From Blasia pusilla (taxonomy: Eukaryota), in NCBI GenBank assembly GCA_050084515.1, contig CM114271.1, forward strand, positions 24,986,001 through 25,050,000: DNA of 64,000 nucleotides, in the 5' to 3' direction. The notes beneath the pieces are model-generated. The model ran no database searches. It was not told the origin of the DNA and saw nothing but the letters and a program-made list of their open reading frames with translations. How positions within the stretch are numbered: the stretch's first letter is position 1; each line of letters opens with the position of its first letter. Shown one piece after another: positions 1 to 62,746 of the stretch. Both the position numbers and the translations under genes were made by a program.

Positions 1-2956
1 TCTTTCAATTCATGTTTTTTTCCTTTTTCAATATCAATGCCAATATATTTCACATTCTAATATGCTTTTTATTTTGACATCTATGTCACGAATCCAAAAA
101 GAAGTTATGGAGTACAAGAATGTTCACTTAAACGAGCCAGACCTCACCCGATAACAAGCTGCTATCCATTATTCTAGATTGACAGGTGGTATTAAGCCTG
201 ATCAATTTAAGGAGCTACGCATGATAATGAAACTACCAATCAGCATGTTGATAAATGTGTCAGCTCCAAAAGCCGCACATTTGCAGGAACGCATGAAGAT
301 CGCCAAAGAAGCTGGTACACTTGTTACTGAACCAGCAGATGGTGGTAGCATTTCTAACAGCTACTCAGACACACCAAGTTCTAGCCAAAATCTGTTACCG
401 ACACCACGATTCCAAGGTTCTTGGGTGTACAGCGACACAACACCCTACTAGGGACTGTTGCTGCCCGAGTCGCCGAACAAAAGGAAATATGTTTGATCAT
501 GGTAACTGACCTATCCTGCTTACGTGTAATAAGTGATTTTGTTTCATTCTAGCTTTATGACAACTCTTTCATGTACACTCTATTTCGTGATCTAATCCGG
601 CTTTCTGTGTTGATCTTGTATCAGGGAAACTCCATATTGCAATAGCATGACAAAACCACCATAGTGGCTACTACTACCGACTATATACTATGTTATATTT
701 GCTGCTAGACTTGTGTTTATTCAGCAAAGGGACGTTTCCCTACTCACACTAATCTAAACTTATCAGTTATGCTCTCTATATACACATAGTTACTTTTCGG
801 ATATTCAAACCATGGCTTATCACTGTCAACTGAGCTATTTTGCAACATATTATTCCAACTGTAACCGCTTTGATGCATCAATTTTTGTTCCCTTTGCATC
901 ATGTTTTTTTAATTAATATTTTCCTAATGCCATAATGTTTGTCGTCACTACATTATAGGTCTCATTATGTTCAATGATATTCGGGCATTCCCATTCCTGG
1001 ATTTAATGTTTGTTGTTGTATCTTTGATGTTATTTAGTATGTGCAATCTATGTCTCATTTTTCAGTCTCTACTTAGTAGCTTCTTCAGTACCTATACACT
1101 GTTGCATGTAGCTAGCAACTAGCAGCTTAGCAGATTGTATATAGCACATTTAATTAATGAAGACTCTTCTGCTACGTGCAAATGTATTGTAATTCATGTG
1201 GCAGGACGTCTCCTCATATCGTGGAAGTGATCCTTACCACACTCCTGGCTCATGGAAGGTTGCACCACGTAAAAGAAGAAGACAATGTTGTTCACCTAGC
1301 ATAGAGATTGAACTTCCAAAGATGGGAGATCCGACCTACTGCAGTGACACACAGTTCCAATTTCTTTGTTCGATGCAACGCTCACAAACATCAGCATAAT
1401 CCAAGACCGTCTTGATGAAAGTGAATATCAGAATGATATTCTATGCATAGTGATGGGATCAGTGGCTGAAGACAAGAACTTCAGTGTTGAGAAGGCCTTA
1501 TGTTTCTGACAATGAATCAAGGCTATTCTTGATGGCATAATTTCGCTTGAGACTCACTATATACAAAATTATAACCGCGATGTAGATTTTCATAAGCAGC
1601 TTCTGGAAATAGGTCTTCTGACCAAACACAGTGCAGTTCCTGAATAAGTATATCTCAAGTTAAGTTAAAAGCTAACCATCTTGGTTGTTTAAGGTGGAGC
1701 TATTGTTATTTCCATAAAGTAAAATTCCACGGAGCTTACATCTTGGCTTGCATTCAGTATTTCTCGCTATTTATTATCTGCAAGCTCTACTCTCTCATAG
1801 TTGGAATTTCTTTTCTTGCTTAACACTATCTATTCCCACGTCTTCTATTTTGTAAAGTTGGTGACCAGCTAACTCAGTCGCCATTAAAGGAGTGTTGGAA
1901 TTATGTCATCCATGCTGCAATTTTATTTTTAAATGTGAATTCCAGCAAGCATAGAACACATATTTGTATATGTCTTCTTTGTGTTCAGCTTACTTGCTAA
2001 AATAGTGCACCACACCTCCTCTGTGCTAAATTATATGTGCCCCTCTTATACCGCACATCACTCTAATACTTCATGGGCCATCACTTCTCGTCAGGATCAT
2101 CTAATCTTTAATACTTGCAGATTCTGTAGCACAAATTTCTACATCCAACAATTTTTTGAAATTGTCTAAATTGTACTTTATGTTTGTTGTTTGTTATCTG
2201 TTTCTATGTTGCATTTGGCTACAACATTTCTATGTGTTGAAAATTCAGCCTTATTAGTGCATAAAATCATTCATATGTACATCCATCCTTATTTAGGCAA
2301 CAAAGGCTGTTTGATCCCTACTTCACAACATAAAAGAATCCCAATTTCCTTTGCCACCCTCATAGGCAGTTTAAAGCCAAGCACTACCGGCTTGCTACTG
2401 GCCCTATGAATAAATAAACGGCAGCACCGTAATATGTTCACAGCGTATTCACAAAGAACATGATGGAACAATGTCAAAAATAATTTAACAGAACATATTA
2501 AACAATTTATCCACCCGTGACCTATAATGACGATAGTGATGCACCTCGTTTCATCCACTTTTACTATTATTTTGAGCATTCCGCTAGTTGCTCTACCTTT
2601 TTGCGGATTGTGCGCTTATTCATGATATTCAATTTCAACAAGTGCCATGGACTACTAATCTAGTCCGCGTGAGCCAGGGGCCGCATTCTTGTTATATCTA
2701 TTTAATTCTTGCAATTTAAATTAACTTTACCATGACACATCCATGATGGCTAGATTTTTAAATTTTAAAAAGATTAATCATATATCTTTTCAAAATTTCC
2801 AAATCTCCTTCATATTCATTAATTATTCGTGTATTCTACAAATATTTTTTTAAATCAAATTTTTGAATTTGGTGGGGAGGAAAATTTAACTTTCTATTTA
2901 AAAAAAAGAGTAGGTATGTTTTTATCCTCTAAATAGAGAGATAAAAATTTAAAAAA

Positions 2957-3145
2957 CAAAGTTGCACATAGACCGAGTCCATATCCGCGGACTCATGTTC
3001 GTCCCAAGAACAGACATGTCCATGTGGCCCTGAGTTTCCCTCATCCACACTCATACTCATCCCACCCCACATGCAACGTAGACTTGGATTCGGCCAATCC
3101 ACACCCCAATTCCAACGATTCGCCGCTCATTTTGTAACCCGCATC
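2957..3145. mobile_element. Degenerate hAT-type MITE end (CAAAGTTGCAC), related to the 41392, 53889 and 56629 elements
   Basis: Terminal motif followed by the gtcc/ggac/catgtcc subterminal motifs seen in the other copies. The right end and TSD are not resolved. Confidence 0.35.
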
Positions 3146-3790
3146 GAGCCCACTCTCCCATAATAATTTAGATGGTTTTGAACTAATTTTGAAACCAACC
3201 ATAATTTGATTCTCTCCTCATCTAAAGGGATTTAACCTTAAACATCCATACGGAATAAATATTACAAATTTCTCAATGAAAATAAATTATACTAGTGTGA
3301 AGAGCGAAAGCACTAATCATGTTGCACATCCTGCTGTCAGGGAAACAGGGGAAACATTTTCTTGTCACATGTCACGAATGAGGTGTTTGCAAATCAAAAA
3401 GGAGTTGAGTGCTTCTATCGTCCTTTTAAATTGAAGGAGAGGTGAATGGGCGCGAAGAGCGCAACCAATGGAATAGACGGAGAAGGTGAAGCACTCGAGA
3501 ACATGCACTCACACAATCTGTGTCGGAACGCTTCGATTGATTATCCCTTGAGCTTTCGTAGTTTTGCGGGTGCTGGCGCCTCTGAGGCCGAGTTTCTTTG
3601 AAGGGAAATTGAAGCAGATACACAGATCTCCCACGGCCTAACCGGCTCCAGATGCAATTACGGGTTGAAGCTGATAAGCCGATTTCCTCCCGAAAGATTT
3701 GGTTTGACGAGATGGCGTGGAGAGAGGAGGGAGGTGGAGAGGACGTGAGATGTTTCCTGCAGCAATGAGCACATTGGAATTGGAATCGGA

Positions 3791-5454
3791 ATGGAATTAG
3801 GGCGGATGGCAGACATGAATGTCGGGGGAAAAGAGGAAGTGGGAGGGAAGTCGAAGATGGGAGGGAAAGAGAGGCGGAAAGTGGAGTCCTTGGGATGGCT
3901 GACAGAATCGTCTGTGATGCCTAAAAAGCAACGGGCGATTGGTGGTGTTGGCGCGTCTTCCATCGTGGAGTTACGAGCAGAACTTTACAGGACGCAGGAA
4001 GATGTCCGGAAGGCCAAGGAAGGGGGCGTGGATCTCGACGCACAGAGGTCACGAAAGAAGTTTGGAGTGCCTGACAAATTCTCACTGAAGAATGCGGGAA
4101 TTGAAGAGAGAGCTGCAAAGTGAGACTCGCATTTTTCTGTAATAGATGGTCGTTTTGGTTTTGCAGTGAGACTACTTGCTATTCTGATGTCGAGAATTGT
4201 TGTTTATTTTGACAATATTGCTACTCGTTCGGCGTAGGGTTAGCACGAGTCGAAATTGACTGCTGATTATGACTGATGTGCTGTTCTTTCCTTCTTCTTT
4301 TTTCACGTGATGAATCGTTTTTTTGTTGGGATCCATTTTTCGTGACGGGCTGCCTCTGTTACTTAGTATGGGACGACAGTTGTGCACGATAGAAATTTGC
4401 ATCGGGAAATTCTCTTGAACAATTTCGTCTGAGGTTCGCTGAAAGTCTAGGCTCAAGGACTAGTCTATGCAGACTTTAAAAGGATGTTTCTGGTTGAGCT
4501 TTTGTTGTTCGTGCTCAACCTGAAATGTATGTGATCGGATCCGCCTATTCTCGACTAGGGCTCAGAATCTCATTTCGAATTCTTTGTTTTTGTAGAGACA
4601 AGCTGCACTTGAAAGCCGAAAATGATGGTTCAGCAAGCTATGCTGCTCTTGAGAAGAAGGCTGAGCTCTACGAGAAGCTAGTAAAGGGAGACGTTCCAGA
4701 CGACGAAGCAGAAAAGTATAGCGTGGATTTTCTCAGGAAAGGGTTTCTGGATGATGAGTACCAAGAAATGGAACGCGAAAGAAGGGGAGAACCATCGACA
4801 CCCACTCGTGATGCACAAGACAACAGCACAGGCCCGTCAGGCTCTCAAAGAAACAATTCCAGCATGGGTTGGACACGGGATGGTGCCAGGGGACTCAGTC
4901 AAGAGCACAAGCAGATAATCAGGTATAATCACTCTCCAACCATTTTTGTACCGTCATCTGAAATCAGGAAGCAAAAGAATCCATACGATCTCTGGCCAGG
5001 GTTGGTTATGAGGTAGTATTCATGTTTGTTGGTCAGATGAAGATTATTTGCCCTGCAACGCTACCTGAGAAATCGCATGTTCAAGAGTAAAGTAATTGCA
5101 CCACTTACTGTTCTCATCAAGAAGAACGAGGCCATGATTTTACTGGTGAAGTACCTACTAAGAGCTTCACTGCACACCAAGAATTTGTCTTGCTTATGGA
5201 ATACCTATCTGGCATGACACTTCAGGGAAGTCAATGAGGAGACAAAGAATGCAAGGGAGAGGACATCCAATTTGAAGCAGCAACGGCAAATGCAAGCTGC
5301 CAAGAAACGAGAACAATTACGACATGCCTATCTAAAACGCCAGGTCGAGAAGCTGAAGGCAGCTGCTCAACAAGTAGATCAGGAGAAAGCATCTGGAGAT
5401 GTGTCTTCTTCGGGTGCTGCAATCACCAAAACTCTGGCAGTCGAGAACTCCTAA
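3791..5454 (+). CDS. CCDC174/DUF4078-like coiled-coil protein (Arabidopsis At4g18257-like), 3 exons: 3791-4119, 4596-4922, 5226-5454
   Basis: GT-AG introns join in frame: ...KVESLGWLTESSVMPKKQRAIGGVGASSIVELRAELY...ERAAK|DKLHLKAENDGSASYAALEKKAELYEKL...EHKQIIR|EVNEETKNARERT...REQLRHAYLKRQ. The start could be the ATG at 3791 or a slightly downstream ATG. Confidence 0.85.
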
Positions 5455-17375: not shown

Positions 17376-17537
17376 TTGGTTGAAAGTCAAAAGGATAGGA
17401 GTTTGCCAAATAAAAGGGTACTCTTCAATAATAATACATACTCAAATTAGCATTTAGGGATCCACAATTTTTCCGCACTTGAACCAGTAATTATTACTTC
17501 TCAATGATTCTTGCCTATCAACACTGCTCAAGGAGTA

Positions 17538-18030
17538 TGTCACGTCTCTTAGGATAGATTGTGAGAAGCGGAGGACAGGCTCAATAGGTTGAGGATGACC
17601 TGCTGAGGCCCCGGGAAAGATGAGAGAGCACCTTTCCCCTTCGTTTCGGCTCATTTGGAGCCATATAGAGAAACTCACTATTTGAGGTAAGTACCATTTT
17701 GAGTATGTGATCAACTTTCTATTTTTGGTAAGTGGCCATTGACCTCCTACATCAGGTCAAGAGCCAAGGAGGTGACTTGGGAGCATAGGTTACTATGGAG
17801 AGAGTTTGGGAGAGGGGAGGGGTATACCTCAAGGAGAGAGAGCTTGAGAGCTCATTCTCTCTTTGTTGAACCTCTTGGCATGAGGCGACAGAGCTATGGT
17901 CTTGCTTGCCTTGTGTGTGTAACCCAAGCCTCTCATTAGGAGAATGGATTTGGTTTGACATTGAGAGACACATGTGAGAGTGCACAGATGTGAGAACTAT
18001 AGTGTTGTGAGAGAGATTTGGTCTTATTTT
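17538..18030 (+). repeat. Terminal repeat B1 (LTR-like, contains a putative promoter)
   Basis: Homologous to 26186-26681, 30475-30895 (-), 38128-38640 (-) and 38828-39211. TATA-like gtatac at about 17822 and Inr-like CTCATTC at 17851. Confidence 0.85.
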
Positions 18031-18046
18031 ACAAAGAGAGAATGAG
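18031..18046 (+). promoter_or_regulatory. Putative self-priming primer-binding site
   Basis: ACAAAGAGAGAATGAG is the exact reverse complement of CTCATTCTCTCTTTGT at 17851-17866. No TGG-type tRNA PBS is present. Confidence 0.65.
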
Positions 18047-19449
18047 TGAGTGAGAGAGCTTCATGGGGGAGTTCGTTGGTCACTCGCTGGTTTTGCAGGT
18101 TGGGGATCGTATTCCCCGTTCAGCGGTTCATGGTAATGCTCACCGGAGCAAGAGCCGCTTACTTGTGATATTTCTTTTGCGGATTTTTCGTGTGGAAGAG
18201 TGGCGCGCGGAAGCGCTACCCAATTTTTGATAGGGATTGAGTATGGAGGCAGGTTGCCCCATGTCGGTGCTCTCGGGAGCACCATGTAGCTTGCGGATTT
18301 GTTTTCTCACATATTTTACATTTTCGTTGGGTGAAATCAGCGCGAAAGCACTATCGAATTATGTGTAGGAGAAAGAGACATTTGGCTTTACAACAGTCCC
18401 CGTCAGTTTTTACTGGAATGTCCGATTCCAAATATTTTTTGACGCTTTTGTAGATCGTGAAGCTGTGCACATTGTGCAACAAACAGTGCATAATTTGGAG
18501 TTGCAAAAAAGAAGTTATGGTCAATCTTGCAAAATTTCCATTGCTAGGCGATTTTTAGGGTTAAATTGTTCAAACCCTCAATCAGCCGTTAATGGTCAAC
18601 GGTCATTATCAACGATCAACCGTCGCCATCAACGGTCAACCATCATCTTCAATGGTCCACCGTCCATTGTCGGACGTTGCCGTCCCCTAGCGCTGCTCAG
18701 AGCTGCATTTGGCCGTTGTCCACCCTTTGGTTGCCATTGCCGCCATTACGGAGGGTCTTCCACGACCACCGTTGATTCTCTGACTTGTGCTGCCACCACG
18801 TACTTCGGTTTGGCCGCCACCGTCATCGTAGTTTCATCATCAACCAATGATGGCAGGTGACCTCGGGTTATGGTGTTTGAGTTTTCATTTCATGTTGCTA
18901 TATTGGGATTGGTAGCCGCTTGACGATGATCGAGTACCGTGCTGTGACGCCCGTAGCCGTAATGCACCACCGTTTGCGGCGCCGTTGTGCATGTGGCCGC
19001 ACCGCACCGCACCGCACCGTCTCGATCACGGAGCCGCTCCTTCACTAAGGTGCAGAGCATGTGAATTGCTGATTGAGGAGGGTATGCCACCGAGTGTCAT
19101 GCCGTTTGTAACTGTTCCGTGCCACGAGTGCCACACCGGACCGTTGGACCTGTATCGCACATCGAGGAGGTTTGAGTAGCGTCAGTACAAGAAGAGTACG
19201 ACTTGCTGATTGGAGGAGTTGTCTCACGACAGAGTTGGGGTTGAGATTTGCAATTGCCGAGGAGCGATATCGACATTATTGTCCAGTTACCCATTATGGT
19301 CTCTTACCCAGTGCGTGTGAGGGCTTTCCGGATATTGGGAAGTTATTTGGGATATTGGGTTTCGTGCTGATGCTAGTAGCATCCATAATGTATAGGTTTA
19401 GGGGACATAGACCTGTGTGGGATGTCCAGAGTTGAGGATGGTTTGTCGA

Positions 19450-19980
19450 TGCTTGGTGACGGAGGCTCAGGCTATCCAATCATGGTACGCGATGTTGGAC
19501 CGGACCCTACGGACACATGTGCGGGAGGCGGTGCTTCTTATGAACACCTCCCCTACGTTGAGAGATGTTTTTAGGACCGCCGAGAACATTGAGCACAACA
19601 TGGCGGAGGAGAGCGTAGCCACCATGGGTTCTCGGCGAGAGCAGTCACGATTTCCTACACCACCTATGCAGCAACGTGGACCCCGAGATAGGTTGACTTT
19701 GGTACCACGAGATGAGGGAGGTAATTGGGAGGCCGTGCCACAGAGACCTGCGCCTTCATATGCGGCTCAGCAGTATCCACCAATGATTACTTATTGGTCA
19801 TATGGTGGAGCCCATCATGAGCGTGATTGCACTCGTCAGGGTCATGGAAGTGTGCCTCAGCATGGAGGAGGAGATGGTGGTACACCAGGAGGTTATCAGT
19901 GTGACTATTGTCAGAGATATGGTCATACACACGCCAGGTGTTTCAATTTACATTCTGAGTTACGTCCGGACCGAGGGTGA
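19450..19980 (+). pseudogene. gag: Gag C-terminal part with two CCHC zinc knuckles
   Basis: CDYCQRYGHTHARC intact. The first knuckle is decayed here (YWSYGGAHHERDC) but has Cys at those positions in copy 2 near 35400-35450. Confidence 0.8.
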
Positions 19981-20773
19981 GAGAGGACACCAGAGCGAGT
20001 AGCCGGTCCGAGTGGGGCTAGAGATTGTAAACCAGGCGGTCCCGTTGGGGGACGAGGATCTGGAGTTGCCTGACAGGGTGGTGGAGCTGCCCGTGGAGGA
20101 GGTAGAGTCCCACCACCTACACGCGTTGAGGGAGACTCTGGGCGTGAGGCTACGATGGATGCTTAGATATATCAACTACATGAGCAGATTTCCGCTATGG
20201 CATTGAGATTACCGGATCGGAATCTATGGCATCAACATCATATGGAGCAGCCAGAGATATGGAGGATCCTGGTTGGATGTGCGGGGTTGCCCAGATGGAG
20301 GCCGCCCAGTTGTGACGCATGGAGTAGCCGCAAAGTTGGATCCACAGCAAGGGGAAGCCACGAAATAGACTAGGCTTCCTGGATCTTTCACGTTGTCTGA
20401 AGCGATGAGGATCCCATCGATGGGTCCTAATCAGAGTTCTTGGAGAGTTGGTGATGTTTTTGGTGTGTTGGCATGAAGGGCAATGGGAGAAGTGATTGCG
20501 ATGACTCCCATTGTTGATGCTCAAGAGGGGCATGTGTCGAGCACGTTGTTGGGGGTGGCCACCGTTGTGTACCGTGCTCCTTTATTTTTTGCTTCCGATG
20601 TTATGATGTTGGGAGGTACGCACGCCGAGGTTTTTCAGCTGGCCGCTATGTGAACATGGAGTTGGAGTTCTTTATCATATTCAGAGGTGATTGTAGAGGA
20701 GGTGATGGACTTGCCCTTTGAGCGGATGCTGGGGCCGTCCACGTAAGATTCATGGCAAGCTGCGGCTACTAGG

Positions 20774-21250
20774 ATGGCGGAGATGCCTGCTAGACCCGCG
20801 ATAGAGCGTGCCATGGTTTCTCTTGGTGTTGTGTTGCTGGATAACCGAGGAGAGGTCTTCCAGTTGGTGAGTCTCGGAGGTAGAGCTTTTAGTCCACAAC
20901 GCGTCTTGTTGGATTCAGGAGCGCAACCCCTGATGTTGGGGAAAGCGTCATTCAGAGGATTGGGCTTGACGAAAGCGGATGTGGAGCGTTGTCCATTCCG
21001 GGTACAGACATCCTTGGGTGGAGCAAGTGCCACATAGTATATCACCTGACAGGAGGTCGTGGTGAGGATTCACCCGGGACATCCTACAGTTGAGTCCGTG
21101 GTGCGAGCCGAGGTGATAGTGACTGATGTAGAGTCCTACGACGTCTTGGTTGGTGGAGCAGTGTTATACCCAATGGGATTTTCCCTGGATTATTGGGAGG
21201 AGTCAGCATCCAATAGACCAAGATGGCAGTCAAGTGATGTGCGCCTTAGC
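20774..21250 (+). pseudogene. Retropepsin aspartic protease
   Basis: RVLLDSGAQPLMLG active-site motif and YDVLVGGAVL C-terminal motif; internal stops. Confidence 0.85.
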
Positions 21251-21618
21251 TCATTACCCGTTCGATTCACATGTGTCGAGATGGAGCGTCGGCCATGAGA
21301 GATCGCGACCTTAGCAGTATTTAGCAGTGCCATCACTTGGCCTAGTGATTTGATTGAGGGACATGTCCATGCAGAGGATACTCCCGTTCCTGACATTTCT
21401 ATGGAGAGGAGTGTCATGGTACCCGCATCAGTCTGTGGAGGAGAGGTGCCGCTTTGGGGATTGACTGAGGATCTTCGAGGCTTAGCCACTAAGCATGTGC
21501 AGATCGCGTGGAGCGAGACCCTTGCACCAGAGTGTGATGGATCAGAGGAACCCCAAGTAGGCAGGAGTGCTGCTATGACCCCTTTGGACACCACCCTTAT
21601 TGTGTGGTGCATCCCAAA

Positions 21619-22490
21619 GAAGGGTATTCGGGTGTTGGATCTCTTTGGAGGGATCAGCACTGGGTTAGTTGTTGTTTTGCACGCTGGAGTGCGCGTGCAA
21701 CAGTACCTGTATGTGGAGATTGATGATGTTGTGAGGCGCGCTTCACTTCACCATGTGGCACTGTTACACCTCCATTTTCCTGACTTGTTGTCTGCGTCCG
21801 CCATTCAGGGTTACCAAAGTTCCCTACCGAGGGACATTTCATTGTTGGGGGCGCAAGACTTGGAGCGGGTAGGGACCATAGACTTGGTCATTGTTGGTTG
21901 CCCGTGTTAGGGCCAATCGAGTGCTAGACGAGGTAGCATGTTAGCTGACACTCAATCTAGGTTTTTTGGGAGATGATGCGGATCTTGCAACATTTACAAG
22001 AGCATCAGTCTCCAGCATGGATCGACCCGGCGGTGTATTGTTAGATGCAGCGAGTGTGGGTTCACGAGCACATCGCCCGCGTCTTTGGTGGACCAACTTG
22101 GTACCACATGAGGTATTGCGAAGGGCTTATGCAAGAGTGGAGCGTCCCTCCGATTTGTTGGTGGATTGTATATTGGATCCGGGTTGTCAATCACAGGCAG
22201 TGAGGCACGATGATCGACTACCGTTGACTGTCATCAATAGGATTGGCATGCCAAAAGCCGCCTTTCCCACATTGGTGAGTTTTCCCGCTTCCTATGCATT
22301 CAAGGAGGCAAGACCTGGCTTGGTTTGGGATGACCAGGTATAGAGGTTGGTGGAGCCCAACACCAATAAGCGAGAGCGAGCGATGGGATTCCCCATAGGA
22401 GTGACGGCAGTACCGTCACTATCGGAGGCATCACGACGTCATGTCTTGGGTCAGGTGATGGACCCAAACTGCTTGACATGGATTTTCAGC
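21619..22490 (+). pseudogene. DNMT3-like C5-cytosine DNA methyltransferase domain inside pol
   Basis: Motif I IRVLDLFGGISTGL, motif II YLYVEID, motif IV IDLVIVGCPC, motif VIII AHRPRLWWTN, motifs IX-X ERAMGFPIGVT...SRRHVLGQVMD. Motif VI is deleted in this copy but present, mutated, in copies 2 and 3. Confidence 0.9.
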
Positions 22491-22802
22491 TTAGGAGTAG
22501 TTGAGCAACATTGTTTGAGGATGCAACAGATCAAAGTTGTTGCGTTTGCGAGCCCCATGCCTATCGAGACGGTTGAGGCAGTGGCTGGGGGCAAGATCCG
22601 AGGAGATCGACACACCAGGGGTGATCGGGAGAGACACCCTTGGACTTCCTAAGATGTTTTGCAAGTACGCCAGGAGATGATAGCCACAACATTGAGCGTG
22701 GTTCTAAGTACTGCACGTGGAGATGGGAGTTCTATTGTCCGAGACGGGGTTGCACCATAGCAACCACCGACATCCGCGTCGAAGAGTCCTATCGTAGTCA
22801 CG

Positions 22803-24250
22803 ATGGAGACTTGGGAGCCAGATATGGGGCCTAAGTTGATAGGAGGAGAGCGGCATCGGATACACCAGTTCCTTAGGAGTTATAGGAGATGTTTTGCATT
22901 TAGTATGCATGATTTAGGTACACTGAAGGGTCTAGGGATCCGCATTGAGTTGTCGAGTGACACGCCGATCTTCCGACAACCCTACAGGTATAGTGACATG
23001 GAGAGGGCTCTAATTTAGAGTAGGATCCAGGACTTGGTTGGAGCAGGACTAGTGGAGATGTTGCATGGAGAGTATGCATCTGCTATTGTCATGCCCGCCA
23101 AGAAGGATGTGCATGGCAACTAGACAGATAGGCAAATGTGTGGAGATTACCGACCTATCAACCGGTAGACAAAGGCCGATAGGTATGCCATGCCCACCCC
23201 TAAGGAGATCTTTGATACAATTGGGCATGCAAAGGTCTTCAGTTCATTGGATTTGCAAGCCGGATACCATCAGTTGCCTATCAGATTGGAGGACAGGAAA
23301 AAGACGGCATTTTGGGGCATCGATCCTCAGGGGAAGGATTGTTTGTACCAATGGCGGTTCTTACCATTCGGGTTAAAGAACGCTCCGGCTTAGTTTCAAT
23401 GGGTCATGGATAGGATCTTGGCAGGTCTAGATTTTGCTAGGTATTATATTGATGACATCGTAGTCTTTAGCGCCACGGTTAAGGAGCATGAGGGACATCT
23501 AGAGGAGGTGTTTCGACAATTGCAGTTACATGGGCTAAAGCTACATCCAGGCAAGTGCAAGTTCTTCTACAACCAGATTGAGTACTTGGGTCATACGATA
23601 TACCCTGGGGGCCTTGGTGTGCAACAGATGAAGGTAGAGGCTATTTCACGCATTCCATGCCCTATAGATGTGAGTCGAGTTCATGCATTCATGGGATTGG
23701 CAAACTTCTATCGACGATATGTCAAGCGTTTCAGTTTGATTGCAAAGCCGTTGACCTTGATGACCAAGGTGGATCAGGAGTGGCACCGGGGAGATGAGCA
23801 AGAGAGAGCATTTCAGATGCTCAAGGACAGATTGACGTTCGCGCCCATATTGAGGAGACCAATCAGGGGTCGTACTTTCCACTTGCATATTGATTGGAGC
23901 ATGTTGGGGCTTGGAGCCGTGCTCATCCAGCATGACGATGATGGTAGAGAGTTCGTGGTGGCTTAGGCTAGTCGCTCAAACAATGATGCAGAGGCAAAGT
24001 ATAGCTCGTACAAGGGTGAGTGCTTGGCTCCAGTATGGGTTGTCGCACATTTCAGATGTTATCTATTTGGCAATCCCTTTACCATCATTACTGATCATGA
24101 GCCATTTTAGAGGTTGATTGAGTCCAAAAAGCTTACGGGGAAGCTTGCGAGGTGGGCTCTTTTGTTGCTCCAGGAGTATGATTTTCAGGTGGTACATAGA
24201 CATGGGATGCTCAACGAGGATGCAAATGGGCTGAGTCGTAACCCATGCCC
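22803..24250 (+). pseudogene. pol: Reverse transcriptase and RNase H
   Basis: FRQPYRYS, MCGDYRPIN, FSSLDLQAGYHQ, LPFGLKNAPA, YIDDIVVFS; RNase H LHIDWSMLGLGAVL...YSSYKGECLA...IITDH. Confidence 0.95.
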
Positions 24251-24338
24251 GAGTCAGCGACATGCGACTGAAGCTCGATGGCATGGAGAGAGTGATGAGG
24301 AGTTAGTGCCAGGATGACACGCGTCAGCCTATTTAGGC

Positions 24339-25875
24339 TTGTTGACTATGGAGAGCCAGAGTGTGGAGACTTTGATAGCGAGGTCTGATGGAGAGTCCTT
24401 GGATCCTGAGGCCAGTGAGGAGACGATAGGTGGCCGAGATATTCATGATGATGGAGTAGTCTTGGAGTATCTGCGTACTAGCAGCGTTGCGAGCACAGTG
24501 GGTGCTAGAGAGCGGGATCGGGTCCTACAGAGGACCAGACAGTTCCGCTGGGAGGGGACACATGTGTTGCGAGTGTGGGAGGATGGTAGAGTGCATGTAG
24601 TGCCTCATCCTTCACAGAGAGCATGTTTGGTACGTCATGCCCACGAGGAGTTGGGTCATTTTGGAGTGAAGCGGACATATAGCTTGCTCCAGATTCAGTA
24701 TTGGTGGCAAGGCATACAGACTGACGTTCAGAAATTTGTTGCTAGATGCATGGTGTGTGATCAAGTCCGAGCATCGTTCAATGCTCCAACTCCACAGTTG
24801 CATCCACTTCCAATCATGGGTTTAGGTTATAGATGGAGTTTGGATTTTGCAGGATCTTTGCCTTTGAGGGAGCGCTATAGTCGTTATGTGTTGGTGATGG
24901 TCGAGCGCTTCTCGAAGTGGATAGAGTTGGTTGCATTTCCTGACAAAGCGAGTGAGGGAGTAGCGTATGCCTTCCTAGATCGAGTGTTGAGTCATTATGG
25001 CGCACCTACTGAGATGTTGATAGACCAGGATACAGAGTTCCGTGGGGAGTTTCAAGCCTTGTGTGATCGGGCAATGACCGACCACCGCACTACTTCACGA
25101 GATCATCCTGAGGCGGATGGACTAGCGGAGCGAGGTTGTGGAGACGATGAAGAGAGGACTACACAAGTATGGCTTACAGAGAGATCACCTAGGATATTGG
25201 GACCTTCAATTGCCGTGGTTGGCGATGGGATACAAATTCAACAAGCAGGCATCCTTAGCGTCTTTCTCACCGTACTTGTTGCTTTATGGCCGAGAGCCAG
25301 ATTTATCATTCATCGAGAATATCGGTGAGGTGTTGAACCTTGATGACCATGATGTATGGATGCGAGCATGTTCTGAGAGGTCTGCGTTGTTTCGGAGAGT
25401 AATGCCCATGGCATTTGAGAACTTGGCGATTACGCAACATCGAGATACGTTGAGGTATGCGACTATTCGAGGAGGTGGTTATCGATCTACTATCCGGAGG
25501 TTTCATCAAGAAGACTATGTCTACTTGCATCAGACGACATCCACAATGTTGGATGTGACTGCAGGGCACACCATCTTGAGAGTGCGTGAGGTTTTGCCAT
25601 CCGTCGTTCTCTTATTGGAGGGACGTGATGGTATGGTTTGGAAGGATCATGTGCGTAATTGTGCGCCATGTCATCTTCCGAACATTGAGGGTACAATCGA
25701 TCCGAGCTTAGCAATAGTTCCTGCAGGCTTGCGGTGTATGTTGTGTGGTTCTGCCCGTAGTGCAGCCACTATGCTAGTCTATGATGGGTGTTCAAGAGGA
25801 TGGCATATGACATGTTTGACGCCACCTCTCACTAGGGTTCTTCAGGGATCATGGATGTGTCCCAGATGTACATAG
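24339..25875 (+). pseudogene. DDE integrase with C-terminal PHD finger (25735-25872)
   Basis: HHCC (HAHEELGH...CMVC), D (WSLDFAG), D (LIDQDTEF), E (GLAER), frameshift near 25135. Ends CMLCGSARSAATMLVYDGCSRGWHMTCLTPPLTRVLQGSWMCPRC, a C4HC3 pattern with one C>Y change. Confidence 0.92.
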
Positions 25876-26055
25876 AGTAGGTAGTTGTACATTCCGACTT
25901 GTGTCTGTGACATGGATGACAAGAAGGTGACTAACGATGGGGCCACATGAGAACCTGGCCTTCTTGCTCTTAGTGTCTGAGAGATGTATGTCATGGAAGG
26001 TAGGGATAGATGGCTATTTGGAGTTAGAGGGATCTAACCACCAGCTAGGGGAGCA

Positions 26056-26183
26056 ATTAGAGATATTTTGGTACTTTTTGTCTTGTTGTTTGGATGCCAT
26101 GAGTTAGCATGGGATTGTGCGTGTTTGTGTGTGTGTTCGGTGACAGCGATGTATGTTGTGTAGTGATGTGTATACGCACGATA
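26056..26183 (+). repeat. Repeat A, preceded by a short purine tract (26047-26053) and ending CACGATA
   Basis: Homologous to 30350-30474 (-), which ends CACGACA against unrelated flank. Confidence 0.8.
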
Positions 26184-26185
26184 AT

Positions 26186-26681
26186 TATCACATCTCTTAG
26201 GATAGATTATTGAGATATAGTAGAGCGCCTTCGTGAGTAGCAGAGGACAAGATCAATAGATTGAGGATAACTTGTTGAGGCCCTGGGAAACCTGAGAGAG
26301 CACCTTTCCCCTTCGTTTCGGCTCATTTGGAGCCATGTTGAGAAACTTACTATTTTAGGTAAGTACTATTTTGAGTATGTGATCAACTTATATTTTTGGT
26401 AAGTGGCCCTTGACCTCCTACATCAAGTCAAGAGCCAAGGAGATGACTTGGGAGCATAGGTTACCATGGAGAGAGCTTGGGAGAGGGGAGGGGTATACCT
26501 CTAGGAGAGAGAGAGCTTGAGAGCTCATTCTCTCTTTGTTGAACCTCTTGGCATGAGGCAGCGGAGCTATGGTCTTACTTTCCTTGTGTGTGTAATCCAA
26601 GCCTCTCATTAGGAGAGTGGGTTTGGTTTGACATTGAGAGACAAATATGAGAGTGCACACATGTGATAACTATAGTGTTGT
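26186..26681 (+). repeat. Repeat B2 of copy 1, truncated about 22 bp short of the B end
   Basis: Direct repeat of 17538-18008 sharing subfamily-diagnostic bases (gtatgtgatcaact, gacctcctacatca). Joined to repeat A through a 2-nt AT spacer. Confidence 0.85.
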
Positions 26682-30349: not shown

Positions 30350-30895
30350 TGTCGTGTGCATACACATATCTACGCAACATACATCGTTGTCAACGAACAT
30401 ACACAAAAAAACACGATCCCATGCTAACTCATGACATCCAAACAACGGACAAGAAGTACCAAAATATCTCTAATAAAACAATGAAGTCTCTCATCAACAT
30501 CTCACACCAAGCTCTCCATGCTGCACTCTCACATGTCTCTCTCAATATCAAACCAAACCCACTCACCTAATGAGAGGCTTGGGTTACACTCACAAGGCAA
30601 GGGACCATAGCTCCTCTGCCTCGTGCCAAGAGGTTCAACAAAGAGAGAATGACCTCAAGCTCTCTCTCTCTGGGAGATATACCCCCTTCGCTCTCCCAAG
30701 CTCTCTCCTCGATAACCTATGCTCGCAAGTCACCTCCTTGGCTCTTGACGTGCTGTAGCGAATCAAGGGATACTTCCTAAATTGGAAAGTCAACTATACT
30801 CCAAATAGAAACTTACTCAAAATAGTAAGTTTCTCTATATGGCTCCAAATGAGTCGAAACATGCTCTCTCACGTTTCCCGTGGCCTTAGTAGGTC
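30350..30895 (-). repeat. B-A repeat block (B 30895-30475 fused to A 30474-30350); probable 3' terminus of Gypsy copy 2
   Basis: The minus strand reads B...cattgtttta|ttagagatattttgg...CACGACA and then unrelated flank. Same subfamily as 38128-38640. Confidence 0.8.
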
Positions 30896-30899
30896 AAGG

Positions 30900-31570
30900 A
30901 TTTGGAAGTTGCTCTATTGTCTTAGAAGATCTATGCTAAGAGTATTTATATAGCCTTGCAAGATTCATTTAGAGAGAATAATCTTATTGGTACAATGAAA
31001 ATCGTGAATCCCTTTCACATGCCGTCTAGACAAGTAGGACTCATAAGTTGGGGATGTAAGGATATAGAAGAGTTGTTTGCACATTTTGGATCTGAGTTAC
31101 CACTGAAGGGGCATTTGCAACCTTCTATCATAAATTTTGTTGATGTCAAATGGGAGTTCCAATCCTTCAAGTTGATGGCGATAATTGAGTGGAAGGATCG
31201 TAATTTCAAAGATCTGTGGGTAATGGTGAATTGGAGTCCATGTTTACAATGCAAGTTTGCAAACTTATTGGTGTTGGCTAATGTTATGATGGTTCAATGT
31301 GGAAGCATTGCAATTTGTGAGAGAGCATCCTCAATTCAGAACATGATAAAGAGTAAGTGTAGGAATAGACTAGGTAGTAAGCATTAAGATGTTCTTCTCA
31401 GAATTTCTTTAGAAGGCCCTTACTAACTATGGGGATAGGCTTGTTGAACCTCTAGTTTTGTGGAATCTTTAGTTCTCTAGAAACTTTAGATACATGTGTG
31501 CTAATCCAGAAAGATATCTTTCTCCTCAAGTCGAAGTTAAAGGAGTTACACCTTCTATTGACGTGCCTTC
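30900..31570 (+). pseudogene. hAT transposase C-terminal dimerization domain fragment (ZNF862-like)
   Basis: FANLLVLANVMMVQCGSIAICERASSIQNMIKSKCRNRLGSKH*DVLLRISLEGP matches the hAT S..CER.FS....K...RNRL motif. Confidence 0.8.
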
Positions 31571-31737
31571 CTAAAATGATTTATGCATTCTTGTTTAGAT
31601 TTAGAGCCCCTTCACAATATTTGGGATCCTTACAACTCAAAAAATTGTGAAGGGGAAAAATCCTTGGCTCCCAATTGGTTGGGAGGCATGGCCAAGTTCA
31701 ACTCTTGACAAGGATCCCCTTATTAAATGTGAAATCA

Positions 31738-34700
31738 AGCACCTAACAAAATTTAGACCTGCCAAGATCTTATCCATGACCCTCTGAAACTCAAGTGGGG
31801 CATTCTTTAGCCCAAATAGTAAGAACCGCCACTGGTACAAACAATCCTTCCCGTCAAGATCGATGCCCCAAAATGCCGTCTTCTGCCTGTCCTCCAATTT
31901 GATAGGTAGTTGATGGTATCCGGCTCAAAGATCTAGCGAACTGAAGACCTTTGCATGCCCAATAGCATCAAAGATCTCCTCACGGGTGGGCATGGCATAC
32001 ATATTGGACTTTTTCTGCCGATTGATAGGTCGGTAATCTCCACACATTTGCCTATCTCTCCAGTTGCCATGCACATCCTTCTTGGCGGGCATGATAGTGG
32101 CAGATGCATATTCTCCATACGACATCTCTACTAGTCCTTCTCCAACCAAGTCCTGGCTCCTACTATGAATCAGAGCCCTCTCCATATCACTGTACCTGTA
32201 GGGTCGTCAAAAGATCGACATGTCACTTGCCAACTCAATGCGGATCCCACGACCCTTCAGCGTACCAAAATCATGCATGCTAAATGCAAAACAACTCCTA
32301 TGACTTATGAGGAACTGGTGTATCCGGCGTCGCTCTGCTCTTGTCAACTTAGGGCCCATATATGACTCCCAATTCTCCATCTTGACTATGGTAGGACTCT
32401 CCGGTGCGGGTGTCGGTGGTTGCTATGGTGCAACCCCATCTCGGACAATAGAACTCGGCTGCTCCCTTGTAGACAACTGCAAACTCTAATCTCCACGTGC
32501 ACTGCCTAGAACCACGCTCGATGCTATGGCTACCATCTCCTGGCATACCTGCAAAACATCCCAATAAGTCCAAGGGTATCTCTCCCGATAACCCCTAGTG
32601 TGTCAATCTCCTCGGGTCTCGCCCCTAGCCACTGCCTCAACTGTCTTGGTAGGCATGGGGCTCACCAACGTAAAAGTTATGATCTGTTGTATCCTCAAAC
32701 GATGCTCCTTAGCCACTCCTCAGCTAAAAATCCATGTCAAGCAGTCTAGGTCCATCGCCTGACCCAAGACATAACGTCGTGATGCCTCTGAGAGTGATGG
32801 TACTGCCGTCACTCCTGTGGGGAATTCCATCGCTCGCTCATCGGCATTGGGCTCCACCGACTGCTCTACTTGGTCATCCCTAACTAAGCTAGGTATGGTC
32901 TCCTTGAATGCATAGGAAGCGGGAAAACTCACCAATGTGGGAAAGGCTACTCGTGGCATGCCAATCTTGTTGACCACAGTCAACAACCGTCGATCATCGT
33001 GCCTCACTGCCTGTGATCGATGACCTGGATTGAGAATACAATCCACCAACAAATCAGAGGGGCACTCCACTCTAACATACGCCCTCCGCAAAACCTCATG
33101 TGGCACGAAGTTGGTCCACCAAAGATGCGGGCGATGTGCTCATGAACCTACACTCGCCGTATCCAACAACACTATCGGGCCGATCCGTGCGCGCGCTTGA
33201 TGTGCACTTGTTACTACATGGGACCTTGAATCGCCCAAAATTGGTATATTCCCCAGAATGTATGATGGAGAATGAGACTAATGCTCCTCTAAGTGTCGCA
33301 AGATCTGCATCATCTCCCAAAACAACCTAGACCAAGAGTCAGCTAATCCGCTACCTCGTCCAACACTTGATTGGCCATGACGCGGCCAATCAGCAATGAC
33401 CAAGTCTATGGTCCCTACCCACTCCAAGTCTTGCGCCCCTAACAATGACATTTTCCTCGGTAGGAAACTCTGTTAAACCTGGATGGCGGACGTAAACAAC
33501 AAGTCGGGAAATCGGAGGTGTAATTGCGCCACATGGTGAAGTGAAGCGCGCCTTGCAACATCATCAATCTCAACATAAAGGTACTGTTGCACGTGCACTC
33601 CTGCCTGCTAAAGAGCAGCTAAGCCAGTGCTGACCCCCCCCCAAAGAGATCCATAGTAGCATCCCTGGCTACCTCGGGTTCCCCTAACTCGTCACGCTCT
33701 GGTGCAAATGCCTCATTCCACGCCGTCTGCAAATGCTCATTAGATAAACGTCGAGGCTCCTCACTCGAGCCCCACAACGGCACCTCTCCTCCACAAATGA
33801 TGTGGCTACCATAACACTCCTCTCCCTAGAAGTGTCAGGCGTGGGGATGTCCTCTGCATGGACATGCCCCTCAATCAAATCAGAAGGCCACGTGATGGCG
33901 CTGCTAAAGTCTCCATCTCTCATGGCCGTCGCTCAATCACTCCACTTGTGAATCAAACGGGTAATGAACAAAGTTTTCCATCACGAGACTACCCTTCTGG
34001 TTTGTAGGACACTCACTCCTCCCAGTAATCTAGGGAAAACCCCATCGGGTACAACATTGCTCCACCAACCAAGACATCGTAGGACTCTGCATCGGTCAGT
34101 ATCGCCTTGGCTCACATCACACTAATCTGTAGGATGTCCCGGGAAAAGCCTCACCATGACCTTCTGTCGGTTGATATACTGTGTGGTACTTACTCCACCC
34201 AAGGATGTCTCCATATGGAATGGACAACGCTCCACATCAGCTCTCGTCAAGCCCAATCCTCTGAATGCCGCTTTCCCCAACATCAGGGGTTGCGCTCCCA
34301 AATAATAGGACATGCTGCGGACTAAAAAATCTACCTCTTGGACTCACCAAGTGGAAGACCTCTCCCCAGTTATCCAGCAACACAACACTAGAAGAAGCCA
34401 TGGCACGCTCTATCGCGGGTCTAGCGGGCATCTCCGCCATCCTAGCAGTCGCCGCCTGCCATGAATCTGACGGGGACGGCCCAAGCATAAGCTTCAAGGG
34501 CAGGTCCATCACATCCTCTGCAATCACTCATGAGTATGATGCAGGAACACCAACTCTACGCTCACATAGCATAGCGGCCAGACAAAAAACCTTGGCGGGC
34601 ATACCTCCCAATGTCATAACATCCGAAGCAGAAAATAAAGGAGCACGGTACACAATACTTGCCGCCCCCAACAACATGCTCGACACATGCTCCTCTTAAG

Positions 34701-37700
34701 CAACAACAATAGTAGTCGTCGCACTTGCTTCTCTCATCGCCCTCCGTGCCTGCACACCAACAATATCACCAATTCTTCGGGAACTTTAATCAGGATGCAT
34801 CGATGGGGTCCTCTTTGCCTCAGACAATGTGAAAGATTAAGGAAGCCTAGTCCGTTTCCTGGCTTCCCCTCGCTATGGATCCAACTTTGCGTCTACTCCA
34901 ACTTTGCGTAACAACTATGATGACCTCCATTTGGACAACCCCGCACCTCCAACTAGGATCCTCCATATCTCTCGCTGCTCCATAAGACGTCGATGCCACG
35001 GATCTCGCATCGGGTAGCCTCAATGCCATAGCAAAAATCTGCTGCTATGGCTAAGCAGCAGTTGTATCTAAGCAGCCATCCTAGCCTCATGCTTGGTGTC
35101 TTCCTCAACGCGTATAGGTGGTAGGACTCTACCTCCTCCACGGGCAACTCCACCACCCCCTCGGGTGAATCAAGTTCCTTGTCCCCCAACGGGACCACTT
35201 AGTGCATGACCTCTAGGCCCATCCGGACCGACAACATGCTATGGTGCCCTCTCTGGCCCTTGGTCCGGACATAACTCAAGGTGTAAGCTGAAACACCTGG
35301 CGCATGTGTGACTGTACCTCTAACAATAGTCACACTGATAACCTCCTAGTGCAGCACCATCTCCTCCTCCATGTTGAGACGCGTGTCCATGACCCTAACG
35401 GTGCAATCGCGTTGGTGATGGGCTCTCCCACATGCCCAACAAAAAATTGCAGGATGCTGTTGTTGAGCCGCATATGAAGGCGCAGGTCTCTGTGGCACGG
35501 CCTCTCGGTATCCTCCCTGAGCTTGTGGTGCCAGAGACCTATCTCAGAATCCACGTTGCTGCACTGGTGGTCCAGGCAATCATGACTGCTCTCGCCTAGA
35601 ACCTATGGTGGCTACGCTCTCCTCCGCCATGTTGCGCTCAATGTTCTTGGCGGCCCTAAAAACATCTCTCAACGTAGGTGAGGTCTTCATAAACAGCACC
35701 CCCTCCTGCACGTGTGTCCGCAGGGTTTGGTCCAGCATTACGTATCATAACTGGATAGTCCGAGACTTTGTCACCCCTTGAGTGAGGTTAATCAACCAGC
35801 GCAAGCGAGTGTAGGCTTCACATAACCTCTCACCTGGGCACCTCTAGAAGTCATGGATACTCCGTAACTTCTCTATCCGTACCCCATGGTAGCTCGTCCC
35901 CAACTCAGTAAAGAACTTAACCACGGGGTTAAACCTGGGATGAACCCCGACTGGATGGTGCAACTGCTCCAGTGCAAGTTACCCCTCCTAAAACATCACA
36001 AGTGGAAGAGGAAGTAGCCTCTCATGATTCCTCCTCCTCATTTGGGAACATCTCTATCCATGACACATAGTGTGGGTCATAGTAGAGTGGCCATGCCTCA
36101 TCTCTTGGGCATATCTGTGAGAGAACTCATGGTAATCGTCCATGGGTGCCCCCTCTAGGTGCTAGAATATACCATTCCATGTTGTAAATGGGTTGAACTC
36201 TCTAGAATTCCTAGCCCGTTGTGAGTCACACCAACTCCTAACTCCGCAATGAAGTGTAACTCTAAAGTGCCTATAGCACCCAAAAACTTACGCGATCCTC
36301 TACCCCGATCGTCCATCTCGTACTCCCAAGCGGTGTGACCACTAACTGTGTGTGGTGATGCACTAACAAACTCCTCTACACTCTCCCCCTCGTCTGAAGA
36401 TGACACAGAGGGAGATCGAAGTGGTCTCTCACGTGAAGACCCTCGAAACCTCGCGCCACTCTGCGTAAACCCTCTAGAGCTACTCTCAGGTCCACCACAT
36501 GGCTCTCAAAGTCCCGAAAGGACGCCGCGATGACCCTCGTGCCCCTCTCGCATGATCACTCTCACCCTTGTGAGTAACCCCTCAATCACTCAAATCAACC
36601 ATGCGACACTCAGTATACACTCCCTCTCCCCAAGACGTGTGAGGTGCGACAACAAGCTATGTGGTACGCAACTCACTAGGCTATCATCTCATCGGAAACC
36701 TACCCTCAACTCTAGACATCCCACACAAGTCTATGTCCCCTAATCCACCTACATGAATGATGCTCTCAACATCCGCACAAACCCAACACACCAAAAAAAA
36801 CTTCCCAATTCCCGGAATCCCTCACACGTGCAGGGCAAATGGAATAGAATGGGTAACCTAATATCGATGTCGCTCCTCGACAACTGCAAATCTCGACCGC
36901 AACTCGGTCGTGAAGATAACTCCTCCAATCAGAAAGTTGTACTCCTCTCGTACTAACGTTGCTCAAACCTCCTCAATATGTTGTGCGGATCCACCAGTAC
37001 GGTGCCGCACAGGCGGCACGGAACGGCTACAGAATGGCACGACACTCGATAATACGATGCGGCACTCCGCGGCATACCCTCCTGAATCAGAAATACACAC
37101 GCTTTGCTCCTTAGTGAAGGAGAAGCTCCACGATCGAGATAGTGCGGTGCGGCCAAGAGCGGCATGGTGCGGCAATTAGCGGCGCGTTGCGGCTACAGGC
37201 GTCACAACACGGTACTCGATCATCGTCGAGTGGCTACCAATCACAACATAGCATAATGAAATGAAAACTCAAGCACCATCAACCCGAGGTCACTTGCCAT
37301 CATTGGTTGATGACGAAACATCGATAATGGTGATGACCACAAAAGAGTACGTGGTGGCGGCGCAAGTCAGGGAATTAACGGTCGTCGTGGAAGACCGTCC
37401 ACTCCATGATGGAGGCAATGGCAATCAATGGTGGACAACGGCTGAACGCAGCTTTGAGCGGCGCTAGGAGGTGGCGGCGGACCATTGACGATGACGCTAG
37501 ACCATTGACGGCAGATCATCGACGGTGATGGTTGACCATTGACGGCGACGGCAACTGTCGGCGCGGCGGCTGGTTTAGGGTTTGAATAATTTTACCCTAA
37601 AAAAAATTACCTAGCAATGGCAGTTTTGCAAGATCAACCATAACTTTTTGTGCTCGCAGCTCAAAATTGTGCACCATTTCTTCCACAGTGTGCACGACTT

Positions 37701-38640
37701 TGAGATCTACGACAATGTCTCATTTTTTTTCATTCAACTTTCCCATAAAAACCGACAGGAATTGTCATGCAACCCTTCAAATGTGCACTCTTAGGACAAA
37801 ATTGGCAGCGCTTCCGCGCTAATTTCTTCCACAAAAATTCAAACCTGTAAAATCACAAACCAATGAGCTACTTGGTGCTCCCGAGAGCACTTGCATGGGG
37901 AAATCCGCCCCCAAACTTCATCTCTAAAGAAATTTGGGCAGCACTTCCGCGCGCCACTTTTCCACACAAAAAATCGACAATGGAAAATAGAAAAATAAAT
38001 AGCGCTTGCTCTGATGAGCACTCCCATGAGCCGCTGAACGGGGAACACTATCCCCAACTTGCACCAACAGCAAGTAACCAGCGAGCTCCTCCATTGAAGC
38101 TATCTCACCCTCTCATTCTCTCTCTGTAAAACAATGAAATCTCTTATCAACATCTCACACCAAGCTCTCCATACTGCACTCTGATATGTCTCTCTCAATG
38201 TCAAACCAAACCCACTCTCCTAATGAGAGGCTTGGGTTACACACACAAGGTAAGAGACCATAGCTCCGCCGCCTCGTGCCAAGAGGTTCAACAAAGAGAG
38301 AATGAGCTCTCAAGCTCTCTCTCTTGGAGATATATCACGTTCCCTCCGAAGCTCTCTTCTCAGTAACCTATGCTCGCATGTCATCTCCTTGGCTATTCAC
38401 CTGCTGTAGCGGGTCAAGGGCCACTTCCCAAAGTGGAGAGTCAACTATACTCCAACTAGAAACTTATCCGAAATAGTAAGTTTTTTGATATGGCTCCAAA
38501 TGAGCCAAAAAAAAGGGGAAACCTACTCTCTCAAGTTACCCGTGGCCTTAGCAAGTCCTCCTTGACCTCCTAAGACTGTCTTCTAGTATCTCCAAAGGCG
38601 CTCTACTAGATCTCGCCTTTCTATCCTAAAAGTCGTGACA
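31738..38640 (-). mobile_element. Ty3/Gypsy copy 2 (decayed): B1 38640-38128, leader, gag about 36500-35250, protease about 34450-33980, DNMT about 33650-32720, RT truncated at about 31738
   Basis: Colinear with copy 1 on the opposite strand; starts TGTCACG at 38640. DLFGGVSTGL, YLYVEIDD, IDLVIADWP, SYILGNI, HRPHLWWTN, VLGQAMD; RT motifs MCGDYRPIN and FGLKNAP. Confidence 0.93.
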
Positions 38641-38827
38641 AGGCTTAAATGAGTTGAAGAGGCAAATGCTTGCCTAATGAAAGGAGCACTTGGATATTCT
38701 TAGTCAAATTTCACTTAATGTTATCTAGACCAATCCTACTATTTCTTTTCCTTTCTGGAATAATGAAAGTCTCCAAAGAATATAAGAAAGGAGGAGAAGT
38801 AGAATGATGGATGAGGTTTGAGCGAAT

Positions 38828-39211
38828 TGTCACCTCTACTAGGATAAATCGATGAGATCTAGTAGAGCGCCTTTGTAGATACTAGAGGAAAATCTCAAGA
38901 GGTTGAGGATGACATGCTGAGGCCACAGGTAATTTGAGAGAGTAGGTTTCCCCTTCGTTTTGGCTTATTTGCAACCATATATAAAAACTTACTATTTTGG
39001 GTAAGTTTTCATATTGAGTATAGTTGAATTTACACTGTGGAAAGTGGCCCTTGACCCGCTTCAAGATGTCAAGAGCCAAGGAGATGACGTGCAAGCATAG
39101 GTTACTATGGAGAGAGCTTGGGGGAGGGAAGGGGATATACCTCCAAGAGAGAGAGCATGAGAGCTCATTCTCTCTTTGTTGAATCTCTTGGCATGAGGCG
39201 GCGGAGCTATG
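38828..39211 (+). repeat. Truncated repeat B of the same Gypsy family
   Basis: Starts TGTCAC (preceded by AAT); homologous to the first part of B. Confidence 0.85.
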
Positions 39212-62745: not shown

Positions 62746-62746
62746 C

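Follow-up and report, generated by a model that had tools for sequence, protein, structure and literature searches.

In the textbook account, LTR retrotransposons insert a linear cDNA, the primer site determining one of its ends and the purine tract the other. Split direct repeats in the order A1-genes-B1-A2-B2 have been described for the PAT, Ngaro, TOC and VIPER elements (PMC4157794; PMC5890265, Fig. 1e legend). For a Gypsy element, KnitGypsy-Dnmt3 of Klebsormidium nitens, a DIRS-like repeat arrangement combined with Gypsy domains was stated in a figure legend (de Mendoza et al. 2018, PMC5890265, Fig. 4c legend). Self-priming has been reported for the Tf1/Sushi elements and the plant Tcn1 Gypsy elements (PMC6317226), and cleavage of palindromic LTR-LTR junctions by retroviral integrases has been reported for PFV (PMC1180852) and HIV-1 (PMC1905944). 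The original prediction for the present locus, which was made from the sequence alone, held a split-repeat layout to be undescribed for Ty3/Gypsy elements; the legend on KnitGypsy-Dnmt3 already states it. Besides that paper, no second description of split direct repeats in a Gypsy element was found in our literature search.

We analyzed a window of 64 kb from Blasia pusilla (the whole stretch of 64,000 nucleotides), in which self-comparison revealed four copies of one retroelement family (Table 1). Both of the long copies are damaged. In copy 1, B2 stops 23 nt before the B end and no A follows it. In copy 2, the part from the middle of RT to approximately position 58 of the 3' B is missing, with 845 nt of unrelated DNA instead. 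Since copy 1 is without A2 and copy 2 is internally deleted, the B-genes-A-B-A arrangement in the window is a composite of two damaged copies, and the whole layout is absent from any single copy there. The AT-rich insert that replaces the RT-to-B2 part of copy 2 was observed at 30897-31740 and is unrelated to the retroelement family. Copies 2 and 3 stand head to head, such that their TGTCAC starts are 187 nt apart (38640-38828). Copy 2 is the sole copy with both ends. Compared with the 4-6 bp target-site duplication usual for Ty3/Gypsy elements, its flanks, AGCCT and AGCTA, match at three of five positions in what is an old, rearranged copy.

Table 1. Positions of the retroelement copies and their parts within the 64-kb window
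Feature	Positions	Strand	Remarks
Copy 1	17538-26681	+	window self-comparison
Copy 1, terminal repeat B1 (494 nt)	17538-18031	+	starts TGTCAC after unrelated flank
Copy 1, putative transcript start and self-primer inside B (CTCATTCTCTCTTTGT)	17851-17866	+	start inferred
Copy 1, putative self-priming primer-binding site	18031-18046	+	exact reverse complement of 17851-17866
Copy 1, internal region	18047-26042	+	broken by stops and frameshifts
PHD finger	25126-25872	+	Pfam E = 7e-9
Purine-tract-like stretch (AGCTAGGGGAGCAA)	26043-26056	+	directly before A
Copy 1, repeat A1 (127 nt)	26057-26183	+	ends CACGATA; family form CACGACA
Copy 1, spacer between A end and B start	26184-26185	+	AT
Copy 1, repeat B2	26186-26681	+	starts TATCAC
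Copy 2	38640-30350	-	window self-comparison
Copy 2, terminal repeat B1	38127-38640	-	starts TGTCAC at 38640; then leader with self-priming site
Copy 2, internal region, leader to mid-RT	31741-38126	-	colinearity with Marchantia polyproteins
Copy 2, repeat B2, first ~58 nt missing	30475-30896	-	sequence comparison
Copy 2, terminal repeat A2	30350-30474	-	joined directly to B end; finishes CACGACA, then unrelated flank
Copy 3, B fragment opening with TGTCAC	38828-39211	+	self-comparison
Copy 4, internal fragment (protease/DNMT region), cut off by the window end	62322-64000	+	self-comparison; piece 62322-62413 inverted
DNMT3-like domain	~21299-22658, 33667-32555, 62824-63784	+, -, +	between protease and RT

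The coding content assigned the family to a class. Copy 1 carries, in order, gag with a zinc knuckle, a weak protease, a DNMT3-like domain, RT/RNase H, an integrase (H2C2 + rve), and a PHD finger. Pfam recovered RVT_1, RT_RNaseH_2, Integrase_H2C2, and rve in this order and then the C-terminal PHD finger. RT, RNase H, and integrase thus follow one another as in the Pol of Gypsy elements, the integrase having an rve (DDE) core. The DNMT3-like stretch matched DNMT3A/3B in a PDB search (best E = 4e-4); Pfam gave no significant match on the window's own broken DNMT ORFs. The interior is colinear with Marchantia polymorpha polyproteins carrying PF00145, and PF00145 is likewise carried by the liverwort relatives. 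The PDB match and these relatives place a Dnmt3-type C5 methyltransferase inside Pol. No tyrosine recombinase (PF00589) was found in the 20 ORFs scanned, and rve was present, which agrees with the DDE-integrase element of the original prediction. The DDE integrase and the inserted Dnmt3-like domain, together with the lack of a tyrosine recombinase among the scanned ORFs, indicate a Gypsy-type element. The Blasia pusilla element is a degraded, very high-copy Ty3/Gypsy-type retrotransposon family.

The PHD region showed 71% identity to a Marchantia protein (P0014) over 248 aa. In chromoviruses a chromodomain follows the integrase, where the PHD finger stands here, and the PHD finger may be a targeting module. 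Protein searches returned relatives that combine DNMT, RT, RNase H, integrase, and PHD from Marchantia, Calypogeia, Sphagnum, Cymbomonas, and many metagenome contigs, and the nearest proteins were those of liverworts. K. nitens was absent among the named matches, most matches being without a name. Viral contigs scanned for relatives yielded either none or, at 17 loci, only giant-virus PHD fingers and phage methylases. The methyltransferase precedes RT in the liverwort type (P0004, P0008) and in the window. It follows RT in the metagenome/algal type (P0036, P0046, P0056), where YIDD lies upstream of the PCQ/ENV motifs. From this order of motifs, the methyltransferase domain would appear to have been either moved or acquired twice. 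The Dnmt3-bearing relatives are spread far wider than the single charophyte lineage treated in the 2018 paper (PMC5890265).

The ends of the repeats were read directly from the copies. TGTCAC opens B at 17538 (+), 38640 (-), and 38828 (+), with unrelated DNA before each, and CACGACA closes A at 30350 (-), with unrelated DNA after it. In copy 1, the two ends are fused internally as CACGATA-AT-TATCAC at 26177-26191. These starts, this end, and the internal fusion had all been predicted, and the coordinates of the starts and the end were right within one base. The TG therefore sits at the B start and the CA at the A end. The element is not bounded by two terminal LTRs of the TG...CA form; its left end is B alone and its right end is A-NN-B-A. 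Of the predicted GACA-AT-TGTC palindrome, the 4+4 inverted repeat GACA..TGTC is constant and stands, but the perfect palindrome is confined to copy 1; the spacer letters between the A end and the B start are AC in the read consensus and GT in one contig set. The internal site of copy 1 carries mirror-image transitions, by which GACA became GATA (26182) and TGTC became TATC (26187). The junction stays a perfect palindrome despite both of them, and the 5' end of copy 1 keeps TGTC; these mirror-image transitions may be due to chance.

B1 and B2 of copy 1 showed 91.9% identity. Block A (26057-26183) has one other copy only in the window, at 30473-30350 (-), with 86% identity. This second A adjoins a B end: the minus strand of copy 2 at 30481-30468 reads TTGTTTT-A-TTAGAG across the B-to-A join, which can be placed at 30475/30474 or 30474/30473, since one A fits either side. 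An exact join of the B end to the A start had been predicted at 30474/30475, which agrees within one base. The B end in this join is the one that both 5' copies connect to the leader, and the A start is the one found next to AGGGGAGCAA in copy 1. B2 of copy 2 is 86.9% identical to its own B1 as against 77-78% to the B repeats of copy 1, indicating that the B-A end of copy 2 is part of the same insertion. Both 5' B copies (2/2) continue straight into the leader. The split direct repeats A1-genes-B1-A2-B2 were thus obtained as a composite of copies 1 and 2, with joints that occur family-wide. Two conventional arrangements were considered and rejected. An LTR consisting of A+B at both ends is incompatible with the three B starts, none of which has A upstream, and with the reads entering A, which mostly carry a B tail. 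An LTR consisting of B+A is incompatible with the two 5' B copies, both of which continue into the leader and its putative primer site.

The site at 18031-18046 straddles the B end, comprising the last base of B and the next 15 nt, and is an exact complement over 16 nt of the stretch inside B. None of 20000 shuffles of B reached a 15-nt complement, and such a 15-mer occurs at only eight places in the window. The self-primer and the site are paired in both the minimum-energy and the centroid folds of copies 1 and 2, and in this pairing the site is bound by nucleotides 1-16 of an RNA whose 5' end is placed at 17851; in copy 2 the pairing is kept through one G.U pair. Judged from this complementarity, the 16-nt complement is a putative Tf1-like self-priming site. 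A GTATA box lies ~30 nt upstream of the self-primer and is kept in 5/5 B copies, from which we infer that transcription starts at the self-primer.

The other boundary is marked by purines. In copy 1, A is preceded by a short purine tract (AGGGGAG) and followed by B2, and the longest purine run in the 30 nt immediately upstream is 7 for A and 2 for B2. This conforms to the prediction of a PPT-like tract directly before A and none before B2. The B-to-A joints in reads land at 26055/26056, which is the 3' edge of the purine tract. The self-priming site would fix the U5 end at the B end, and the B-to-A joints at the purine-tract edge would fix the U3 start at the A start; therefore, the reverse-transcribed repeat would be A-NN-B. 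Its ends so defined are TTAGAG... and ...TTTTA, without TG/CA, and the B-to-A join is an exact, loss-free join of these two ends. In both respects, namely a replicated repeat made of A plus B and cDNA ends that lack TG/CA, the original prediction agrees with the boundaries found here. The putative self-priming site and the boundary analysis appear to be new here and, together with the mechanism they would imply, are not in print as far as our literature search reaches.

To evaluate the joints over the family, reads were mapped to positions 17400-26186 of the window, a stretch with B and A once each. Two raw Illumina runs with the same species label (X15 and X16; ~2 Gb each, ~1 in 100 of each run) were used, and the contigs of two older runs from other studies (X1 and X2) were mapped to the same stretch. 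X15 and X16, being equal in size, may represent a single data set, possibly from the sample behind the assembly. Mean depth in the sampled reads was 1000-4700, indicating that the retroelement family is very abundant. Split reads connecting the A start with the B end, or with B tails of variant sequence, amounted to at least 494 in X15 (212+46+47+7+133+49) and at least 491 in X16. Further reads entered A at 26056 with a B-tail consensus (at least 861 in X15 and at least 916 in X16; agreement 0.7), giving in all at least about 1350-1400 B-to-A junction reads per run. Mean depth in the leader bin just after B was about 1480 in X15 and 1504 in X16, indicating that B runs into A about as often as it runs into the leader. 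The same joint was observed in the contigs of X1 (at least 7+3) and of X2 (at least 1+1). Reads leaving the A end numbered at least 2641 per run, with the consensus CA-AC-TGTCAC... and an agreement of 0.48. Such an agreement fits a mixture of roughly half A-NN-B junctions, the rest being A-to-flank ends in varied flanks.

The joins go beyond chance: they occupy homologous positions in copies that have diverged, and hundreds of independent reads show them again. The B-to-A join is family-wide and not a one-off. That it might be a one-off deletion had been set out with the original prediction as a point against it, and the hundreds of split reads per run answer this. The predicted order B-ORFs-A-B-A was likewise borne out for its joints, which are family-wide in reads, but not as an intact copy in the window, where it is the composite described above. 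The integrated form of the family is B - putative self-priming site - genes - purine tract - A - NN - B - A.

Depth itself was less informative. The 3' coding part showed a depth of ~3670 as against ~1480 for the leader, and that of A was ~4000, which is not clearly twice the adjacent coding depth. Diverged subfamilies that align in coding sequence only could explain the depth differences. Because most mapped reads were less than 90% alike (125045 of 175330 in X15), coding and non-coding depths are not comparable, and the use of the depth ratio as a copy count of A against the interior was dropped. Among the differences listed between reads and copy 1, C>T was found at 1262 places and G>A at 1469, any other change being at or below ~400. 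Silenced copies whose methylated cytosines have deaminated would be expected to show such an excess.

As the best explanation of these observations as a whole, we lean toward a split-repeat Gypsy family whose end-joined cDNA is reopened internally by the DDE integrase, an account that we regard as somewhat probable. Transcription would start inside B1 at the self-primer and end in B2. Ordinary two-jump reverse transcription would then produce linear DNA with an A-NN-B repeat at both ends, and the TTAGAG... and ...TTTTA termini would offer the integrase no CA. The linear ends would be joined end to end, either as a 2-LTR circle or as an equivalent tandem repeat, creating the B-to-A join. Of the two GACA-NN-TGTC sites inside this product, one would be cut by the integrase, the nicks on the two strands being 2 nt apart. 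A single staggered cut of this kind would create both recessed CA-3'OH ends with 2-nt 5' overhangs, which are the usual substrate of strand transfer, and insertion of the opened form would give B...A-NN-B-A. The extra B-A on the right-hand side would provide the CA end and, for the following round, retain a second R region. It would be needed, since the RNA would have no 3' R if B2 were missing, and the CA end would be lost with A2.

Opening of a circle by the integrase is plausible and would be the simplest way to reconcile the two sets of boundaries. Points against the account are the short purine tract, with its 7 purines, the lack of a clean target-site duplication at copy 2, the absence of the whole layout from any single copy in the window, and the depths of A and of the 3' coding part given above. 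If the choice between the two internal sites of the circle were random, permuted insertions of the form B-A-NN-B-genes-A should also occur, and these would be indistinguishable in short reads. A stricter version is that this natural and highly successful DDE-integrase lineage integrates obligatorily from the 2-LTR circle or tandem form, its att site having moved to a CA-NN-TG 127 nt inside the repeat. We put this forward tentatively and hold it to be a little less probable than its opposite. If it is true, the split-direct-repeat architecture follows from circle-based integration, whichever enzyme cuts, and what the old circle-junction model proposed for retroviral integration would be the route that this lineage normally takes.

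Among the alternatives, the one that survives best accepts the layout as real and dispenses with a free circle. The tandem A-NN-B-A would be made during reverse transcription, either by template switching, with the polymerase leaving one repeat at its end and resuming at the start of a different one, or by recombination of two cDNAs, and the integrase would pick TGTC/GACA on a linear multimer. The same junctions as those seen in reads are predicted by this route, and the exact, loss-free B-to-A join suits a polymerase-made join as well as a blunt ligation. However, no known two-jump pathway copies beyond the U5 end, and the integrase must still cut internal sites, so that the unusual step remains. 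We consider this route rather unlikely.

An ordinary element would also have to be considered, with B as the LTR and A in the 3' untranslated region, the B-to-A joins deriving from one amplified rearranged or non-autonomous subfamily. The sole B-to-A join in the window does sit in the copy with a large internal deletion, and the depth of A, not clearly double that of the neighboring coding sequence, would suit such a structure. Nevertheless, B-to-A reads are about as many as B-to-leader reads, B2 has no purine tract before it, and the edges of the primer site and of the purine tract coincide exactly with the join. Moreover, the B-A end of copy 2 is closest to its own 5' B, and the published relative KnitGypsy-Dnmt3 has the same repeat order by its legend (PMC5890265). 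We therefore judge an ordinary element to be improbable.

Integration in trans by the tyrosine recombinase of another element, as in PAT/Ngaro, with the DDE integrase vestigial or in another role, would account for a repeat order that is that of tyrosine-recombinase elements, and copy 2 shows no clean target-site duplication. Against it, TG...CA ends with a 4-nt inverted repeat are a hallmark of DDE integrases, many intact relatives keep H2C2 and rve while their precomputed domain lists are without PF00589, and so abundant a family is unlikely to rely on a foreign enzyme. These points render it very improbable. Finally, repeats so abundant are hard to assemble, but the junctions recur in raw reads and in the contigs of two other studies, so that a layout produced as an assembly artefact of a collapsed repeat is hardly credible.

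We therefore return to end-joined cDNA reopened inside the repeat as the preferred account. Independently of the route, the boundaries defined by the primer site and the purine tract and the ends of the integrated form differ by a fixed permutation, in probably thousands of copies, and split-repeat Gypsy elements make up a large share of the Blasia pusilla genome. Elements of the form B-genes-A-NN-B-A will be delimited wrongly by LTR finders built to look for a pair of equal terminal repeats. If the proposed route is right, a DDE integrase would routinely make an internal cut to open its intermediate, whether a circle or a tandem repeat. This would link Gypsy elements mechanistically to PAT/Ngaro and would provide a natural system for the disputed cleavage of LTR-LTR junctions by integrase.

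Compared with known systems, the Blasia family is closest to KnitGypsy-Dnmt3, with which it shares a Gypsy-type Pol enclosing a Dnmt3-type methyltransferase and a DIRS-like repeat order, although the host is different; in the text of that paper as available, no mechanism, primer site, or end sequences are given for KnitGypsy-Dnmt3 (PMC5890265). With PAT, Ngaro, TOC1, and VIPER it shares the repeat order, and this order can be read as that of a two-repeat form that has been opened within one of its repeats. However, these elements, as described in the sources cited above, have a tyrosine recombinase and no DDE integrase, whereas the Blasia element has a DDE integrase and TG...CA ends. Similar to Tf1/Sushi and Tcn1, the putative primer site next to the 5' repeat complements a stretch inside the repeat and not a tRNA; in contrast, those elements have ordinary LTR pairs according to the cited account. 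The proposed reopening would resemble the cleavage of retroviral 2-LTR circles, such that an internal CA..TG inverted repeat would be cut to give two processed ends. In retroviruses, as far as the cited reports describe it, the site is the U5-U3 join and the route is debated or accessory, whereas the site proposed here would lie 127 nt inside the reverse-transcribed repeat, and the U5-U3 join would stay uncut inside every Blasia copy. The layout has already been noted once, in a figure legend, for an algal Gypsy relative, and the Blasia family is a further case of a barely described kind.
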